A stretch of 6,202 bases of DNA from IMG/VR virus record IMGVR_UViG_3300045988_052777, positions 1 through 6,202 of that record; one strand, given 5' to 3'. Below the pieces are notes generated by a model. The model was not told where the DNA came from, ran no database searches, and was given only the letters and a program-made list of their open reading frames with translations. The first letter of the stretch is position 1; every line of letters starts with the position of its first letter. This DNA is from a virus. The translations under genes were made by a program, and so were the position numbers. Of the stretch, positions 1 to 6,202 are shown piece after piece.

Positions 1-99
1 GAGATGCCGCCACGGGAGGACTAGCAAGCGGAGTAGGAAGTTTTGTAAATGGACTATTCGGAGGCGGAGGAGGAATAAATTATCACGACCAAAAAAAAC
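1..99. repeat. Terminal redundancy (copy 1), identical to 6104-6202. It is an assembly artefact of a circular genome, giving a unit length of about 6103 nt.
   Basis: By eye, 1-99 (gagatgccgccacgggaggactagcaagcgg...accaaaaaaaac) matches 6104-6202 base for base. Confidence 0.9.
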
Positions 100-1082
100 T
101 AATGGAAAAACAGCACGGGTATGAATTGGAAAACATGGATTATCAAGCGAAGCTTAACGAAGAAATGGCACAGAGGAATCAACAGCGCCAAAACGAATAC
201 TTCGGAATGACAGCAGAATACAATTCAGCGAAAAACCAAAAACAACGCCTGGAAGAAGCAGGATTAAATCCTGCATTAATGTACGGAAGCGCAGGAAGTG
301 GCGGAGCAGGGACAGGAAGCACGGGAGGAGCAAGCGGGAGCGGTGTCGGACTATCGCAAGCACAAGCAGTAGGTATGGGACTTCAATTAAGCCAAATCAA
401 GGCACAAACGAACTTAATGAATGCAGAGAGCGCCAAGGCATATGCAGAAGCGAACAAAATCAAAGGAGTTGATACAGAAGCAGCAAAACAAGGAATCAAA
501 GAGAGCGAAGCGAAAGTTGATGAAATTATCGCAAAAATACCTTCAGAAAAACAACAATATTACGTGGGAAAGGCATATGAAGAATCACTCAAGGCAGCTA
601 AAGAGTTAAGCGAAAGTCTAGCAGCAAAAACAGACCAAGAGAAACTTAACCTCAAAGTACAAGAGCATATATTATTTAAAGAATTCGATAAATTAGTTTC
701 TGAAATTGACGGCGTAAATCTAGACAACGACCAAAAAATAATCATCAAAAATTCATTGCAAAAAAGTATAAATTCTCAAATATACCTAAACACAATGAAA
801 GCAATGGAGGCGGCAGCCAATGCCAAGTTCACAAACGAAAACATGAAAACTATCCAAGGACAGTTAGACCTATGGGCAGCACAAGCGGAAAATTGGAAAG
901 GACAGAGGGAAAACATCCTGAAACAAATCGAAGCACAAATAGAGCAGTGGAACAAGGAAAATAAATTTACAGAGAAAAAATTAAATCTAGAAGAAACAAG
1001 GCTTATAGCAGATATAATCCTAAGAAGTCTAGAAGCTGTGCAAAAAATCGGTCAAATAGTAGGAACAGCAATGATTAAGTAA
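1..1082 (+). CDS. Microviridae minor capsid / DNA pilot protein VP2, 5'-truncated here by linearisation. The true ATG is at 6070 and the CDS wraps the circular junction, about 371 aa in total.
   Basis: The open frame (codons at 3,6,9...) is continuous with the ATG at 6070 across the repeat. The N-terminus is glycine-rich (GGLASGVGSFVNGLFGGGGG, GSAGSGGAGTGSTGGASGSG). A 'QRQNEYFGMTAEYNSAKNQKQRLEEAGLNPALMYG' block matches the conserved VP2 core (...AGLNPALAY...). The C-terminal half is long and K/E/Q/A-rich with coiled-coil character. Stop TAA at 1080-1082. Confidence 0.8.
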   Translation, partial: DAATGGLASGVGSFVNGLFGGGGGINYHDQKKLMEKQHGYELENMDYQAKLNEEMAQRNQQRQNEYFGMTAEYNSAKNQKQRLEEAGLNPALMYGSAGSGGAGTGSTGGASGSGVGLSQAQAVGMGLQLSQIKAQTNLMNAESAKAYAEANKIKGVDTEAAKQGIKESEAKVDEIIAKIPSEKQQYYVGKAYEESLKAAKELSESLAAKTDQEKLNLKVQEHILFKEFDKLVSEIDGVNLDNDQKIIIKNSLQKSINSQIYLNTMKAMEAAANAKFTNENMKTIQGQLDLWAAQAENWKGQRENILKQIEAQIEQWNKENKFTEKKLNLEETRLIADIILRSLEAVQKIGQIVGTAMIK

Positions 1083-1087
1083 TATAT

Positions 1088-2092
1088 ATGTGTTTATATC
1101 CAAAATTAATTCCAAATCCTAAGTACAGGACATCTAAGAAGAGAGGGTACTACAAACCCTCTCCACATGATGCAAGACTGAATTATGTACCAGTAGCATG
1201 CGGGAAGTGCTACGAGTGTAGAAAAAAGAAAGCTAGAGAGTGGAGAATCAGACTAGCCGAAGAAATAAGGCACAACAAGAGTTATTTCGTAACATTAACG
1301 ATTGACGATGAGAATTTAGTAATGTTGAAAAACGAACTAGAAGTAAAATCAGTTAAAGGAAACGAAAACAATATAGCAACACTAGCGCTAAGAAAATTTC
1401 TAGAACGATGCAGAAAAAAAACAGGAAAATCACTAAAACACTGGTGCGTAACCGAGTTAGGAGAAGATAAAGGAAGAATACATTTACACGGGATATTCTT
1501 CGGAAACCAGGCAGCGGAGCTAGTAATTGAAAAGTGGAAATATGGGTATGTATTCATCGGTAATTTTGTAAACGAAAAAACAATTAATTACATCAGTAAA
1601 TACATGCTAAAGGATGACTTAAACAATAGAGAATTTACAGGAAAAGTGTTAACAAGTGCAGGAATGGGGAAACAATACTTTGAACGCGGAGACTGGAAAT
1701 TTAATAGATACAATGGGGAAAACACAAGAGAATATTACGTATTCAAGAACGGTACTAGGGCGATGATGCCAAGGTATTACAAGGACAAGATTTACAGCGA
1801 AGAAGAAAAAGAATTACTTTGGCTACAGAAACTAGATAAAGGCGATACATGGGTGATGGGGGAAAAGTGTAAGATAGATTCAGTGGAGTACAAGAATCTC
1901 CTAAGTTACTACAGAGAACAAGCAAAACAAATACACGGAGATAATATAGCTCTATGGAAGGAAAAACAATATTGGCGAAGACTAGAAAAACAAAGAAGTA
2001 TGTACAGAAAACGAAGGAATATGAATGAATATATCGACAGACAAACAGCAGAGAGAATAAACAACTACGAAATTGGGTGTTGTCCGTTCTGA
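1088..2092 (+). CDS. Microviridae replication initiation protein VP4, a rolling-circle HUH endonuclease homologous to gene A protein.
   Basis: RCR motif 1 YFVTLTIDD (aa 66-74). Motif 2 HLHGIFF (aa 132-138, HUH). Motif 3 YISKYMLKD with two Tyr four residues apart (Y168/Y172, like phiX174 A 'YVAKY'). N-terminal 'CLYPKLIPNPKY' and a Cys cluster ACGKCYEC are typical of gokusho-like VP4. The ATG at 1088 lies 5 nt after the VP2 stop. Confidence 0.9.
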   Translation: MCLYPKLIPNPKYRTSKKRGYYKPSPHDARLNYVPVACGKCYECRKKKAREWRIRLAEEIRHNKSYFVTLTIDDENLVMLKNELEVKSVKGNENNIATLALRKFLERCRKKTGKSLKHWCVTELGEDKGRIHLHGIFFGNQAAELVIEKWKYGYVFIGNFVNEKTINYISKYMLKDDLNNREFTGKVLTSAGMGKQYFERGDWKFNRYNGENTREYYVFKNGTRAMMPRYYKDKIYSEEEKELLWLQKLDKGDTWVMGEKCKIDSVEYKNLLSYYREQAKQIHGDNIALWKEKQYWRRLEKQRSMYRKRRNMNEYIDRQTAERINNYEIGCCPF

Positions 2093-2352: not shown

Positions 2353-2388
2353 TTTGTTTGGTTGGCTTATATTTTTGTGTTATCTTTG
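2353..2388 (+). promoter_or_regulatory. Bacteroidetes-type sigma-ABfr promoter candidate. It has -33 TTTG (2353-2356 and 2357-2360) and -7 TAtcTTTG (2381-2388) with about 20 nt spacing. It would drive the small-ORF/VP1 operon.
   Basis: Exact match to the TAnnTTTG -7 element, with TTTG correctly spaced upstream. It sits about 50 nt before the first gene of the cluster (ATG 2438). No ATG in the genome has an SD sequence. Confidence 0.45.
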
Positions 2389-2437: not shown

Positions 2438-2650
2438 ATGGAAAGAGAAATAGAAATAAAAGCTAAAGAAAACGACTCATACAGGCTAATCCTCAAGCTA
2501 GAATTAGACGAAGAGGACGAAGAGTTGTTAAAGAAAAGACTTCACTTACTTGCGTTATGGCCAAAATTAAGCAATGAACAGGGAGAAGTGATTGAAACAC
2601 TGTTCGGATATTATTGGTACAAAAATTGTGAAATCAATATAATTAAATAA
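2438..2650 (+). CDS. Hypothetical small acidic protein (70 aa), first gene of the accessory module.
   Basis: ATG-initiated ORF directly downstream of the promoter candidate. It is very E/D-rich (LELDEEDEELL). The next ORF starts 2 nt after its stop. Confidence 0.5.
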   Translation: MEREIEIKAKENDSYRLILKLELDEEDEELLKKRLHLLALWPKLSNEQGEVIETLFGYYWYKNCEINIIK

Positions 2651-2651
2651 T

Positions 2652-2873
2652 ATGAATAAGATTTACAGCGTATTAAGAATAGATAATTGGGATAAAGCCC
2701 AATCAGTCTACGAAGGAAGAATTAGAGATTGTAAAAAAAGTTTAGAGACAATCGAAAAGGAATATCGACAAAGAGGCTGGAAAACAAAATTATACGATTA
2801 CGCGCTAATCATAAAATCAGCGACATCAAATTACCAACAATACATCTACTTAATTCACGAACCTGAATTTTAA
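2652..2873 (+). CDS. Hypothetical protein (73 aa).
   Basis: ATG 2 nt after the previous stop, with tight coupling. Orientation and spacing are consistent with an operon. Confidence 0.45.
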   Translation: MNKIYSVLRIDNWDKAQSVYEGRIRDCKKSLETIEKEYRQRGWKTKLYDYALIIKSATSNYQQYIYLIHEPEF

Positions 2874-2874
2874 T

Positions 2875-3066
2875 ATGAGAAACAAGACAATAGCGGTGAT
2901 TGCCGACAAAGAGACAGGAGTCGTCAAATCAATAGAAACAGAGGTAATTATCTTACAGAAGGAATTAGAATCCGAAATGAGATGGGAATGCATGGAAGCT
3001 ATTAAGAGGCTTATAAACAAAAAGAAATACAAAATTATTAACATAAATACTTACTTTTATGACTAA
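2875..3066 (+). CDS. Hypothetical protein (63 aa).
   Basis: ATG 2 nt after the previous stop. Its stop overlaps the next start in ATGACTAA. Confidence 0.45.
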   Translation: MRNKTIAVIADKETGVVKSIETEVIILQKELESEMRWECMEAIKRLINKKKYKIININTYFYD

Positions 3067-3253
3067 AGAACAGAAAGAAAAATTAATTACAGCAGTGGTT
3101 ACATTTATTACCACAGTGTTAAGCATCCTGTTTTTACAAGCATGCACAATGAGTATGAGTATTGCGAAAAACAATAACGGTACTTTCGAACAAAGACATG
3201 AAAACAGTACTAACGTGGATAGCACGAAAATTAATAACAATTTTAATAAGTAA
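3059..3253 (+). CDS. Small membrane protein or lipoprotein (64 aa) with an N-terminal signal/TM segment and a lipobox-like LQAC. It is a candidate lysis (amurin-like) or superinfection-exclusion protein.
   Basis: MTKEQKEK (charged n-region), then LITAVVTFITTVLSILFL (18 hydrophobic residues), then QAC-TMSMS, followed by a hydrophilic N/S/T-rich tail. Its start overlaps the upstream stop (ATGACTAA), which suggests translational coupling. Confidence 0.5.
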   Translation: MTKEQKEKLITAVVTFITTVLSILFLQACTMSMSIAKNNNGTFEQRHENSTNVDSTKINNNFNK

Positions 3254-3258
3254 AAATT

Positions 3259-3495
3259 ATGGAAAGAAATGGAATGAACTTATTCAGAGTCGAGAAAACA
3301 AAAGTAAACGAAGAGGAAAGATTCGTAATTGTGTGCGGAAAATATCGCGCATCAAAAGTGGAATTCAAAACAAAAGAAAATGCAGAAGACTACATAGCAA
3401 ACATGATAGATTGGGACATGTTAGTAACCATTGTAGGACAACTAAGCGAACATATCGCAGAAAAAAAAGTAAACGAAATGTTAAATAATAAATAA
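3259..3495 (+). CDS. Hypothetical protein (78 aa), last gene before VP1.
   Basis: ATG 5 nt after the previous stop. It ends 8 nt before the VP1 ATG. Confidence 0.45.
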   Translation: MERNGMNLFRVEKTKVNEEERFVIVCGKYRASKVEFKTKENAEDYIANMIDWDMLVTIVGQLSEHIAEKKVNEMLNNK

Positions 3496-3503
3496 GTAAG
3501 ACT

Positions 3504-5510
3504 ATGGTTAAAAAAACTATTGGAAAAAATACACTTGGCGACAATAATAAGATGAAAGTCGCTATGCGTGACTATGAAAGAAGTACACACAACCTATCAT
3601 ACATTTGGAGAAACACACAAGCACCGGGAACGCTAGTTCCCTGCATGAAAATTCTAGCAACACCGGGAACGACTTACAAGATTAAGGCAAACAGTCACAT
3701 TCTGACACATCCTACAGTCGGGCCTCTATTTGGAAGCTATAAGTTTCAAGTGGATATATTCACAGTACCCATCAGGTTATATAATGCGTTGCTTCATAAC
3801 AACGCACTAAATGTAGGGCTTGACATGGCAAAAGTTAAATTTCCTAAATTCGCAATAACATTAGGGAAAGACAGTTCTAAAACACCGTGGAGCAGCAGCA
3901 GCCTGTTAACTTATCTAGGGTTCCGGAACAAAGGTCGCGAATTATCTGACTCACTCGATTTTACGCATAAATTTAACGCAATTCCTGCAATCGCGTATTA
4001 TGACATCTTCAAAAATTATTACGCAAACAAACAGGAAGAAAAATTCTATACAATTGGAGTAGGAGACGTGACAGAGGTGCAAAATCCAACTACAACCAGC
4101 TCACCAATTAGAGTGATGGCGGAGGCTCTTGTAGGATCGGAACAAAATTGGGAACTAGTAACCAATAGCTTTATGAATCTGTATTATGCAGAAAACAAAA
4201 TTGTACAATATGTAATTGAAATAGCAGATACAGTATTTCCAAGTAACGGAGATATTAATCAATTAATATTAATAGGCGAATACCTATCGGATGCAACGAA
4301 TGTTATAGGCACTTTCGAAATCACAGCAAAACAAATGGCAGGAAATGCAGCGCTTTCCTACAATAATCAAGTATGGAGCATCCCAGTAAACTGGCACGAT
4401 AAACCTGAATACAGAAACATCAGATTAACAGGCGTCAAGACATCAGGTTCGATCAAACTAAATGAATACGAACTCGAACAAATTGATAAAACCAGAGAGG
4501 AAATTCTATCACTAGGAAGTCAAGAAGGTTTAATACAGCACGAAACCGGAAAAGGAAACATAACGCAAAAGTATCTAAAAGACCTAATCAGCTTAGGAAG
4601 AGAATTTTACAGCGCATATCCACAAGTAGGACTAGCGATTAAGACTTACCAGTCCGACATCTTTAACAATTGGATTAATACAGAATGGATTGACGGAGAA
4701 AACGGAATCAACGCAATTACAGCAGTGGACGTATCAGACGGAAAGCTAGAGTTAGATACACTAATCCTAGCAAAAAAAGTATACAATATGCTCAACCGAA
4801 TCGCAATCAGCGGAGGAACATATAATGACTGGATCGAAACAGTCTATACAACTGATTATGTAAGCAGAAGCGAGATACCTGAATACCAAGGAGGTATGTC
4901 AAGCGAGATCCAATTCCAAGAAGTAGTAAGCAACAGCGCAACCGAAAACGAACCTTTAGGAACGTTAGCAGGACGAGGAATTAATACCGGAAAGAAGGGA
5001 GGAGATATTACTGTGAAGGTAAGCGAGCCATGTTATCTAATAGGAATATGCAGTATTACACCAAGAGTCGATTATTCACAAGGAAACGATTTCGACATCA
5101 TGCTAGACAACCTCGACCAGATCCACAAGCCACAGCTTGACCAAATCGGCTTCCAAGATTTACTTACATGGAAAATGGACGCAGAACAAATCGTGTATGC
5201 GAATGGAGTACTCAAGGAGTATAGCGTAGGAAAACAGCCTGCATGGATAGATTATATGACAAACTACAACAAAACATACGGAAACTTCGCCGTAGGAGAA
5301 CCAGAGGCATTCATGGTGTTAAACAGAATTTACAAAACCGAATGGGAGGGAAATACGCCGAAAATAAACAACTCAACATACATTGACCCACAATCATATA
5401 ATTATGTATTCGCAGATACAGACTTACAATCAATGAATTTTTGGGTGCAAATCGGATTTGACATCGAAGCCCGTATTGTGATGAGCGCCAAAGTAATGCC
5501 AACACTTTAA
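3504..5510 (+). CDS. Microviridae major capsid protein VP1 (F-protein family), 668 aa.
   Basis: The N-terminus carries the conserved pattern ...LSYIWRN...PGTLVPC...ATPGTTYKIKANSHILTHPTVGPLFGSYKFQVDIFTVPIRLY, matching the gokusho/alpa VP1 signature LSH...G.L.P...PG.T...P...F.VP.RL. Its size matches Alpavirinae-like VP1, which is longer than classic gokushovirus VP1 at about 550 aa. It is the longest ORF in the genome. Confidence 0.9.
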   Translation: MVKKTIGKNTLGDNNKMKVAMRDYERSTHNLSYIWRNTQAPGTLVPCMKILATPGTTYKIKANSHILTHPTVGPLFGSYKFQVDIFTVPIRLYNALLHNNALNVGLDMAKVKFPKFAITLGKDSSKTPWSSSSLLTYLGFRNKGRELSDSLDFTHKFNAIPAIAYYDIFKNYYANKQEEKFYTIGVGDVTEVQNPTTTSSPIRVMAEALVGSEQNWELVTNSFMNLYYAENKIVQYVIEIADTVFPSNGDINQLILIGEYLSDATNVIGTFEITAKQMAGNAALSYNNQVWSIPVNWHDKPEYRNIRLTGVKTSGSIKLNEYELEQIDKTREEILSLGSQEGLIQHETGKGNITQKYLKDLISLGREFYSAYPQVGLAIKTYQSDIFNNWINTEWIDGENGINAITAVDVSDGKLELDTLILAKKVYNMLNRIAISGGTYNDWIETVYTTDYVSRSEIPEYQGGMSSEIQFQEVVSNSATENEPLGTLAGRGINTGKKGGDITVKVSEPCYLIGICSITPRVDYSQGNDFDIMLDNLDQIHKPQLDQIGFQDLLTWKMDAEQIVYANGVLKEYSVGKQPAWIDYMTNYNKTYGNFAVGEPEAFMVLNRIYKTEWEGNTPKINNSTYIDPQSYNYVFADTDLQSMNFWVQIGFDIEARIVMSAKVMPTL

Positions 5511-5521
5511 TATTTTATAAC

Positions 5522-5860
5522 ATGAAAAAAGTAGGAATTAATTACAGAAGCAAGCTAGGAACAGCTTTAGTAGAAGGTGAAAGACTTGAGTCAAAAATTG
5601 ACAGAATGACTCAAAACAACGAACCTATCGGAGATAGCGCGCCACTAATCTACACACCAAGGAAAGATGGAGTAATAGCAGCGTACGACATTCGTACAGA
5701 TAAGTGGGATATTGCCTTAGATGCGATGGAGAAAGTTAATCGAACAAGAGGTAAGATATCAGAGCTAGGTGGTATGCGCGAAGCTAAGAAGAGTATCGAC
5801 GAAGAAGCGAAAAAAGCCGTAGCCAACGGTGCAATTGAGTCGAAGAACGAACTTAATTAG
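5522..5860 (+). CDS. Hypothetical 112-aa protein between VP1 and VP2. It could be an internal scaffolding (VP3-like) or other structural accessory protein.
   Basis: ATG 11 nt after the VP1 stop, on the same strand. It is charged and helical (K/E/A-rich C-terminus). Assignment rests on position only. I do not recognise a VP3 signature. Confidence 0.5.
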   Translation: MKKVGINYRSKLGTALVEGERLESKIDRMTQNNEPIGDSAPLIYTPRKDGVIAAYDIRTDKWDIALDAMEKVNRTRGKISELGGMREAKKSIDEEAKKAVANGAIESKNELN

Positions 5861-6069: not shown

Positions 6070-6202
6070 ATGGGATTTATTAAGAATGCATTAGGAATGA
6101 TTGGAGATGCCGCCACGGGAGGACTAGCAAGCGGAGTAGGAAGTTTTGTAAATGGACTATTCGGAGGCGGAGGAGGAATAAATTATCACGACCAAAAAAA
6201 AC
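6070..6202 (+). CDS. VP2 pilot protein N-terminal portion (MGFIKNALGMIGDAATGGLASGVGSFVNGLFGGGGGINYHDQKK...). It continues into 1-1082 through the circular junction.
   Basis: ATG at 6070. Its frame runs into the terminal repeat and is continuous with the ORF ending at 1082. Confidence 0.75.
   Translation, partial: MGFIKNALGMIGDAATGGLASGVGSFVNGLFGGGGGINYHDQKK
6104..6202. repeat. Terminal redundancy (copy 2), identical to 1-99.
   Basis: Base-for-base identity with the window start. Confidence 0.9.

Follow-up and report, generated by a model that had tools for sequence, protein, structure and literature searches.

What does the short open reading frame (ORF) at positions 3059-3253 of the + strand of IMGVR_UViG_3300045988_052777 encode, and what might its product do for the virus that carries it? 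The stretch analysed here, referred to below as the window, comprises 6202 bases and represents a complete circular microvirus genome with every gene on the + strand, and the ORF, stop codon included, specifies a candidate prolipoprotein of 64 amino acids (aa), MTKEQKEKLITAVVTFITTVLSILFLQACTMSMSIAKNNNGTFEQRHENSTNVDSTKINNNFNK, as read from the ORF list and the sequence. Comparison with relatives proves that the ORF is a genuine gene, and its product is very probably a processed lipoprotein; that the mature lipopeptide serves as the lysis protein of the virus, acting from the periplasm, is a possibility that we put forward tentatively. The first-pass annotation had taken the genome for a microvirus of the Bacteroides-associated (alpa-type) kind, which is borne out by the genes of the window and by relatives integrated in Bacteroides.

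The candidate prolipoprotein and its family

The precursor, encoded throughout on the + strand, opens with a charged n-region (M1-K8, with K3, K6 and K8; 3059-3082) that satisfies the condition of a K or R among the first seven residues in the PROSITE rule for lipoproteins. It continues into an 18-residue hydrophobic core, L9-L26 (3083-3136), evident in Kyte-Doolittle hydropathy and as a helix in the AlphaFold2 model, and then into the lipobox L26-Q27-A28-C29 (3134-3145; Cys codon 3143-3145), where cleavage by signal peptidase II is predicted just before C29. The predicted mature lipopeptide, C29-K64 (3143-3250), has 36 aa, among them nine Asn, no Pro and no further Cys, and the 35 residues that follow C29 form a polar tail rich in N, S and T. 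Family alignments place the most conserved block at C29-N39 (CTMSMSIAKNN, 3143-3175) and a second conserved motif at V53-D54-S55-T56 (3215-3226). The charged n-region, the 18-residue core, the L-Q-A-C and the polar tail had all been described in the first-pass annotation, and each was found exactly so in the sequence.

The assignment of a signal peptide was based on the PROSITE rule, hydropathy and the pattern of conservation. The rule used, of the PS51257 type, was {DERK}(6)-[LIVMFWSTAG](2)-[LIVMFYSTAGCQ]-[AGS]-C, with the Cys at positions 15-35 and a K or R within the first seven residues, and the product of 3059-3253 matched it at C29. Exactly one ORF of the real window obeys this rule on the + strand and none does on the - strand, and when the window was shuffled 500 times with dinucleotides preserved, just 5 of the shuffles had a + strand ORF of at least 40 aa that obeys it. 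The same ORF is the sole one on the + strand with a hydrophobic segment in the Kyte-Doolittle analysis, its maximum 17-aa mean being 2.43 against 1.31 for the next + strand ORF. With the rule matched and hydropathy this high, a signal segment is predicted, as had been proposed. AlphaFold2, run with a 24-sequence alignment, placed a helix over residues 3-38, with a mean predicted local distance difference test score (pLDDT) of 84-95 for residues 1-30, and block means of at most 59 for residues 31-64 and below 50 for residues 44-54; taken alone, the mature tail is predicted by this model to be disordered.

The coding status of the ORF was judged from substitution patterns. Proportions of nonsynonymous and synonymous differences (pN and pS) were compared for nine genes across the window and 10 close relatives, and the lipoprotein ORF, with a pS of 0.46 and a pN of 0.026, had the lowest pN/pS of the nine (0.057), the other values being 0.078 for the replication (Rep) gene, 0.196 for the pilot gene, 0.204 for the capsid gene and 0.16-0.29 for the other small ORFs. 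A separate frame analysis with nine relatives gave a ratio of 0.056 in frame and of more than 1.9 in four of the five alternative frames; the fifth, antisense, had a ratio of 0.108 and shares wobble positions with the coding frame. Two overlapping ORFs were rejected on the same grounds, 3162-3488 (+) as an overprinted gene because frames +1 and +2 gave pN/pS values above 5, and 2965-3240 (-) because its low antisense ratio comes merely from the shared wobble positions. It could be supposed that 3059-3253 is itself an ORF arisen by chance, or an artefact of annotation whose hydrophobic stretch is fortuitous, given that it is short and that several database records leave its homologues unannotated or hypothetical, but this would leave unexplained so low a pN/pS at so high a pS, the retention of the ORF between lineages whose capsids are only 21-24% identical, and the finding that only 1% of the shuffles contain such an ORF. 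The frame ratios, the pN/pS and the conservation across lineages refute the chance explanation, which retains next to no probability, and prove from sequence comparison that 3059-3253 is a genuine gene.

The family proved to be widespread among related viruses. A word-index search returned 222 near-identical homologues of 64-68 aa, mostly on contigs of ~6 kb, and the family was found in ~70 related genomes, just upstream of the capsid gene. A homologue was present in 45 of the 58 viral contigs retrieved with the capsid protein (capsid identity 38-93%) and in 24 of the 30 contigs from a second, larger-capsid branch, so that conservation in related genomes, on which the first-pass annotation had staked its proposal, was confirmed. 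The family was also recognised by tblastn in 65 deposited genomes of microviruses sampled from humans, lemurs, rodents, tortoises and chickens, and is always "hypothetical" or unannotated there. A HMMER search of 1.84 billion representatives yielded 23 proteins, 22 of them small (46-104 aa) and apparently of the same family; the remaining match, of 1086 aa, was judged spurious, and no cellular or bacterial lipoprotein relative was present among the matches.

Two family members lie inside Bacteroides DNA, one in the chromosome of Bacteroides sp. f07 (3.7 Mb) and one on a contig of a Bacteroides metagenome-assembled genome. The f07 prophage, of ~6.5 kb, carries the lipoprotein, capsid, pilot and Rep genes and is inserted between the host gyrA/TPR and Usp genes; in our record of it (L062), ~6.47 kb lie between the ATAATGATTATTCCC repeats, 15-nt direct repeats at 7296-7310 and 13764-13778. 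Given that Bacteroides prophages carry the family, the host is a Gram-negative bacterium with a lipoprotein pathway. Integration in Bacteroides agrees with the definition of the Bacteroidetes-associated Alpavirinae (PMC3091885, PMC3394797), and a lipoprotein is mentioned in neither of these two papers.

Between the window and the lineage of the large-capsid prophage, the lipoprotein is 38-48% identical over its full length, compared with 21-24% over less than half its length for the capsid protein, 27-31% over about a third for Rep and 28-36% in part for the pilot protein; in sequence, the lipoprotein is therefore the best-conserved protein common to the two lineages. Moreover, it alone among the five small ORFs lying between Rep and the capsid gene can still be recognised in relatives whose capsids are 40-48% identical. 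Such conservation reflects either extreme constraint or exchange between lineages, and under constraint and exchange alike it follows that the host target must be conserved.

No known family accounts for these proteins. Pfam, PHROG, NCBIfam and PADLOC scans with the window protein and 11-24 family members matched none, the only hits being sub-threshold and inconsistent (DUF6712, DUF1158, phrog_3727 and smalltalk), and no PDB sequence was hit by a profile search at E<=10. Similarity to Llp, Cor, Rz1, the colicin lysis proteins or E was not detectable, no Llp- or Cor-type family of these databases matching at E<=1, and 11 family members searched for the Pfam models Lysis_col (PF02402) and Rz1 had no match at E<=1. 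The NCBIfam model NF033879 ("smalltalk protein", Bacteroidota, 29 positions) gave weak matches for five of 11 members (from L011, L012 and L013), at 16-19 bits with a best of 19.3 (E 7e-4), below the 24.7-bit cut-off, and left the window protein unmatched; these matches span only the hydrophobic leader and end at the Cys, and the resemblance may reflect a common origin of the leader or mere composition. The JGI label "outer membrane biogenesis lipoprotein LolB" on P0046, P0078 and P0115 was rejected as spurious, since these are 64-aa proteins with no LolB domain, and the lipoprotein leader seems to have prompted this over-annotation. A literature search found no description of a lipoprotein in Alpavirinae or Bacteroides microviruses. 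No curated model, solved structure or published description was thus found for the family; in kind it would belong with the small lipoproteins, already known, through which phages act on the envelope of their host.

Some variation was observed at the ends of the gene and in the assemblies. In P0018, P0025, L005 and L006 an in-frame ATG lies four codons further upstream, so that the protein begins MYIY- or MYNY- and has 68 aa, and other lineages have N-terminal extensions of up to ~40 residues, the true start being uncertain in those genomes. At L078 271-3003 the stop is lost and the lipoprotein ORF continues into the capsid ORF as one frame, which points to a faulty assembly or else to a naturally occurring fusion or read-through variant. 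L023 (11.2 kb) and L016 (7.4 kb) contain imperfect direct repeats ~6.0-6.1 kb apart, and L023 has two slightly different copies of the lipoprotein, which suggests concatemeric or mixed-strain assemblies and not larger genomes.

Processed lipoprotein or membrane anchor

Conservation along the precursor bears directly on whether its leader is removed. The Cys is present in all 195 distinct family sequences, and one C-to-R variant is the sole exception among all full-length sequences; the residue at -1 is A, S or G in 194 of the 195, and that at -2 is Q in 169 and otherwise T, E, S or V. The frequency of the majority residue is 0.47-0.51 over the n-region and core (0.51 for positions 9-25) and rises to 0.73 both at positions 29-40 (CTMSxSxxKNN) and at V53-I58 (VDST). 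C29, T30, D54 and S55 are invariant in the family alignments (C29 in alignments A1-A3), while S32, S34, K37 and N39 are kept at 87-96% and T56 at 83%. Because the leader drifts, the junction of small residue and Cys is strict and the tail is conserved, the product looks like a substrate of signal peptidase II whose mature peptide is the working part, and on this pattern we have good confidence in a processed lipoprotein.

In phiX174 E, the transmembrane domain carries the function, and Pro21 is required. An uncleaved signal-anchor protein like phiX174 E or levivirus LysM, in which the helix would bind an enzyme of the inner membrane that serves lipid II supply (MraY or MurJ) and the Cys would be incidental, could be argued from the N-terminal hydrophobic helix of 18-20 residues, which could span the membrane, from the Q at -2, which is not a textbook lipobox residue, and from the known lysis proteins of small phages, those of similar size being single-pass membrane proteins (bioRxiv 10.1101/2023.10.16.562596; PMC12506998). 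However, the helix is the least conserved part of the protein (0.51) and the extracytoplasmic tail block the most (0.73), residues 9-28 include no Pro, the gene is not overprinted and occupies its own frame between its neighbours, and unless signal peptidase II recognises the site, it is difficult to see why the Cys should be retained and why A, S or G should stand at -1 in 194 of 195 sequences. A signal anchor is therefore improbable, and of the two architectures that the first-pass annotation had offered, the lipoprotein is upheld by the kept Cys, the small residue at -1 and the conserved tail, whereas this pattern speaks against an amurin like phiX174 E.

The processed lipoprotein has a weak point at its junction. 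Q at -2 is atypical for a strict lipobox, and the consensus [LVI][ASTVI][GAS]C failed on this residue, which PROSITE permits; since, in addition, a core of 18-20 residues is long enough for an anchor, cleavage is not certain. In Bacteroidota, lipoproteins exported to the cell surface are marked by acidic residues after the Cys. None follows C29 in the window protein, and this lack predicts a product that faces the periplasm and is not exposed at the surface.

Lysis, exclusion or another role in infection

According to a 2012 survey of the Microviridae, phiX174 was the only microvirus whose lysis mechanism had been worked out (PMC3394797). Pfam and PHROG scans of the window ORFs revealed no muralytic or holin-like domain, and because the lipoprotein is, besides, the sole hydrophobic product of the coding strand, it becomes the candidate for lysis.

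The distribution of small membrane proteins among relatives points the same way. Almost every one of the 58 capsid-related contigs has exactly one such protein in the interval between Rep and capsid: in addition to the 45 with the window's family (family A), three have an unrelated lipoprotein-like "GCGSTWK" family (family B) at the same position (L015 2679-2897, L016 4312-4518 and L057 4261-4470), seven have a ~50-aa family with an N-terminal transmembrane (TM) segment just after Rep, and one has another TM protein. Members of family B are 68-72 aa long, with an N-terminal hydrophobic segment, a conserved G-C-G-S-T-W-K junction and a second Cys; homology with family A was rejected, since hhalign pairs Cys with Cys at a probability of only 3%, and the two are considered analogous. 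The ~50-aa family (L017 2213-2365, L018 104-283, L019 4679-4831, L021 538-687, L039 3191-3358, L043 4878-5069 and L049 3538-3696) combines an uncharged TM segment at the N-terminus with a conserved E-V-x-x-R-x-x-P-T motif, has no PHROG match, and could be a different lysis or membrane protein.

An M15 peptidase homologous to annotated endolysins of Stenotrophomonas and Bacteroides phages was found in five microviruses, namely phiHBP1 (from B. fragilis), its relatives L063 and L064, PQ006596 and PQ007097. In phiHBP1 (L059, PV598014) it is the deposited hypothetical protein at 84-488 (-), an M15-type endolysin homologue 45-49% identical to annotated endolysins. Family A was absent from all five, and M15 from every family-A genome examined. 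These M15 cassettes (PMC3394797; phiHBP1, PMC13064476) comprise accessory-region genes thought to provide lysis; they are horizontally acquired enzymes, accompanied by a tiny TM ORF in two genomes, and differ from the lipoprotein in sequence and presumably in mechanism. The tiny ORF, annotated in PQ006596 (L096 3245-3367) and PQ007097 (L097 3018-3125), encodes 35-40 very hydrophobic residues after the pilot gene, several hundred nt upstream of the peptidase, and may be a holin-like partner. Family A, the other membrane proteins and M15 look like alternative solutions to one obligatory task, for which lysis is the obvious candidate.

A lipoprotein in this role would have a precedent. Colicin lysis proteins are made as 47-aa lipoprotein precursors; they switch on outer-membrane phospholipase A, and their overexpression is lethal (PMC2896534), so that a 47-aa prolipoprotein can permeabilise and kill the cell that produces it. 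Like them and the bacteriocin release protein (BRP), the window's product is a tiny prolipoprotein (64 aa) whose mature peptide is short and polar and whose gene is co-transcribed with that of the cargo to be released, although this is resemblance only; the colicin proteins are plasmid-borne and their quasi-lysis leaves the peptidoglycan in place, whereas the window lipoprotein is viral and a virion must cross the peptidoglycan. With phiX174 E and the levivirus Sgl proteins, which inhibit MraY and MurJ, it has in common that one small membrane-targeted protein, in a tiny genome with no holin, endolysin or spanin genes, is the candidate sole lysis effector; unlike them it is not overprinted, its conserved part is extracytoplasmic, it has a lipobox Cys and shows no rapid turnover, and there is no homology. 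The o-spanins of the Lambda Rz1 type are likewise phage outer-membrane lipoproteins that act in lysis, with precursors of ~60 aa and mature forms of ~40 aa, but the window genome has no partner i-spanin, holin or endolysin, and the mature part of its lipoprotein contains no Pro and, beyond C29, no periplasmic Cys through which it could dimerise.

The route envisaged would begin with export of the precursor by Sec, after which Lgt would modify Cys29 with diacylglycerol and LspA would cut between A28 and C29. The CTMSxSxxKNN block and the VDST motif would then bind an envelope component conserved across Bacteroides, making the lipopeptide a single-gene lysis effector at the periplasmic face that releases virions assembled in the cytoplasm, by blocking a late step of peptidoglycan synthesis or by deregulating envelope hydrolases of the host. 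We hold a periplasm-acting lysis lipoprotein to be a tentative reading of the sequence evidence, short of an even chance. The bolder claim, that this would be the first lipoprotein among single-gene lysis proteins, a 36-residue peptide processed by Lgt and LspA that attacks a conserved Bacteroides target from the periplasm, and a core gene better conserved than capsid or Rep in deeply divergent gut lineages, calls for rather more reserve.

Several points weigh against lysis. The exclusivity of M15 is confounded by phylogeny, as the M15 genomes come from other clades and only five were examined. L022 has no small membrane ORF in an apparently intact interval between Rep and capsid, and L020 likewise has none, although there the contig ends fall within the interval. 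Lysis could be a second function of a structural protein, as in the case of Qbeta A2, or the work of a non-hydrophobic product, and the argument from the sole hydrophobic product would thereby be removed. We know of no lipoprotein that acts as a single-gene lysis protein, and the literature search found no description of one. The single-gene lysis proteins known so far change rapidly in sequence and show little conservation, while the lipoprotein is the most conserved protein of its genome. Finally, permeabilisation of the colicin type alone would not let a virion of ~25 nm cross the peptidoglycan.

When the gene is expressed matters for the choice between lysis and exclusion. Within ATGACTAA (3059-3066, +), its ATG overlaps the TAA (3064-3066) of the upstream ORF 2875-3066, an 8-nt overlap that suggests translation coupled to that ORF, and a 5-nt spacer separates it from the next ORF. 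The Bacteroides promoter consensus TTTG-N17-22-TAnnTTTG matched once in the window, as TTTG-N20-TAtcTTTG at 2357-2388 (+), ~50 nt before the first small ORF and ~700 nt upstream of the lipoprotein gene. This is the probable promoter of a module spanning 2438-5860, and no second consensus match occurs between it and the lipoprotein gene. One match alone is not significant, as 75 of 200 shuffles have at least one; among 43 related circular genomes, however, 31 have a single + strand match, placed 420-870 nt upstream of the lipoprotein ORF. The co-transcribed module that the first-pass annotation had supposed is thus supported by the overlap, the spacer and one conserved promoter, and the overlapping start that it had pointed out is there to be read in the sequence.

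The promoter is homologous to the attachment (att) and promoter region of the two Bacteroides prophages. Direct repeats of 15-17 nt, ending in ATTATTCCC, flank both (L062, and L061 at 125-141 and 6652-6668). In both, the att core lies between a -33 TTTG (after Rep, at the right end) and a -7-like CATCTTTG (before the small ORFs, at the left end), and because the core splits the two elements, the promoter is complete only in the circular form. From these two cases, with a -7 box that has one mismatch, it is suggested that the operon, including the lipoprotein gene, is expressed in productive replication and not from the integrated prophage. The split argues against a moron expressed in lysogens, and it could serve as an inbuilt switch by which the structural and lipoprotein operon is kept silent there.

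Microvirus capsids carry receptor-binding determinants, and Bacteroides has TonB-dependent transporters in abundance. As a rule, exclusion proteins are accessory and follow the receptor-binding protein; one of them, T5 Llp, is a folded protein of ~61 aa. A superinfection-exclusion lipoprotein like Llp or Cor, which would stop further adsorption and save progeny from loss on debris or vesicles, would agree with the position of the gene, always just upstream of the capsid gene, with the temperate nature of relatives, and with the lack of acidic residues after the Cys, which suggests a periplasm-facing product as in Llp. Small phage lipoproteins encoded beside the receptor-binding-protein gene are an established exclusion device, said to be common in coliphages, and T5 Llp is a periplasmic outer-membrane lipoprotein that binds the FhuA plug and refolds the extracellular loops (PMC9586334). 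The likeness extends to a small phage lipoprotein, predicted to face the periplasm, whose gene lies near that of a probable receptor-binding component and which plausibly binds an envelope protein. As to the position, in the large-capsid branch only 2 nt separate the end of the family member from the start of the capsid gene, and the gaps are mostly 226-391 nt in the window's branch (larger values being due to capsid ORFs cut by contig ends); overall the gene is always ~2-400 nt upstream of the capsid gene, a proximity that weighs little in a 6-kb genome.

Against exclusion, no likeness to Llp, to Cor or to a family of PHROG or PADLOC was found. A disulphide joins Cys11 and Cys58 in Llp (PMC9586334). 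C29 is the sole Cys of the window lipoprotein, whose mature part, predicted to be disordered, is about half the size of Llp (36 versus ~61 aa). Llp is also an early gene with an E. coli host, while the lipoprotein gene belongs to a structural operon with a Bacteroides host, has no promoter match of its own and lies in an operon whose promoter the prophage att site splits. The lipoprotein is the most constrained gene, 38-48% identical while capsids are at ~21-24%, with no co-variation with the receptor-binding component (capsid or pilot), and its distribution is that of a core gene. Relatives with no member of the family carry other small membrane proteins or an endolysin, which looks like the replacement of an essential function. 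Exclusion is the main rival of lysis, a credible role though on balance an unlikely one.

It is also conceivable that the periplasmic lipoprotein has another role in infection, such as division arrest, remodelling of the envelope or capsule, or vesiculation. Strong constraint and a core-like distribution show only that the protein is important and not what it does, and a peptide predicted to be disordered could bind many kinds of target; yet there is no positive support for any specific alternative, and one small membrane protein per genome, or else an endolysin, is most simply explained by lysis, which leaves a role of this kind doubtful.

Genome layout and significance

The window is regarded as a complete circular genome because the gene of the pilot protein (VP2/H-like) crosses its ends, running from 6070-6202 into 1-1082 (+) as a 404-aa circular ORF that starts MGFIKNALGMIGDAATGG, of which the 326-aa ORF at 102-1082 is only the C-terminal part. 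The Rep gene (Pfam REP_ORF2-G2P) follows at 1088-2092 (+), and then the only long non-coding stretch, the 345 nt at 2093-2437, with a G+C content of ~47% against ~35% elsewhere. This stretch shows two imperfect hairpins (2233-2269 and 2257-2278) and, at 2243-2259, a stem resembling a terminator; it includes the sole promoter match of the window, has no Rfam match and may be home to a replication origin or attachment site. Five small ORFs (2438-2650, 2652-2873, 2875-3066, 3059-3253 and 3259-3495, all +) lead to the downstream neighbour, the gene of the major capsid protein (3504-5510, +; Pfam Phage_F, phrog_514), after which one more small ORF is found at 5522-5860 (+). At the nucleotide level, the sole match to the window among deposited phage genomes was one of 5%, in the capsid gene, at 72% identity. 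An Rfam scan of the window found nothing at the lipoprotein locus, so that an explanation by RNA is unsupported; elsewhere, at 235-270 inside the pilot gene, it gave a sub-threshold match to CRISPR-DR32, which at 26.6 bits (E 0.18) falls short of the gathering score of 48 and is most likely due to chance.

Lysis by microviruses outside the phiX174 group is largely unsolved, and the lipoprotein, as the sole envelope-targeted product of its genome, is the leading candidate for it in viruses of this kind. Bacteroides-associated microviruses are abundant in the human gut, and their sole cultured isolate, phiHBP1, uses a differing solution, the M15 enzyme. Whether the lipoprotein serves lysis or exclusion, the CTMSxSxxKNN and VDST motifs offer a handle for finding its target. 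Should exclusion prove right, the jamming of receptors by lipoproteins would be extended to single-stranded DNA phages and to the Bacteroidota. If the role is lysis, the family would mark a conserved weak point of the Bacteroides envelope, accessible from the periplasm, and would represent a new class of "protein antibiotic".

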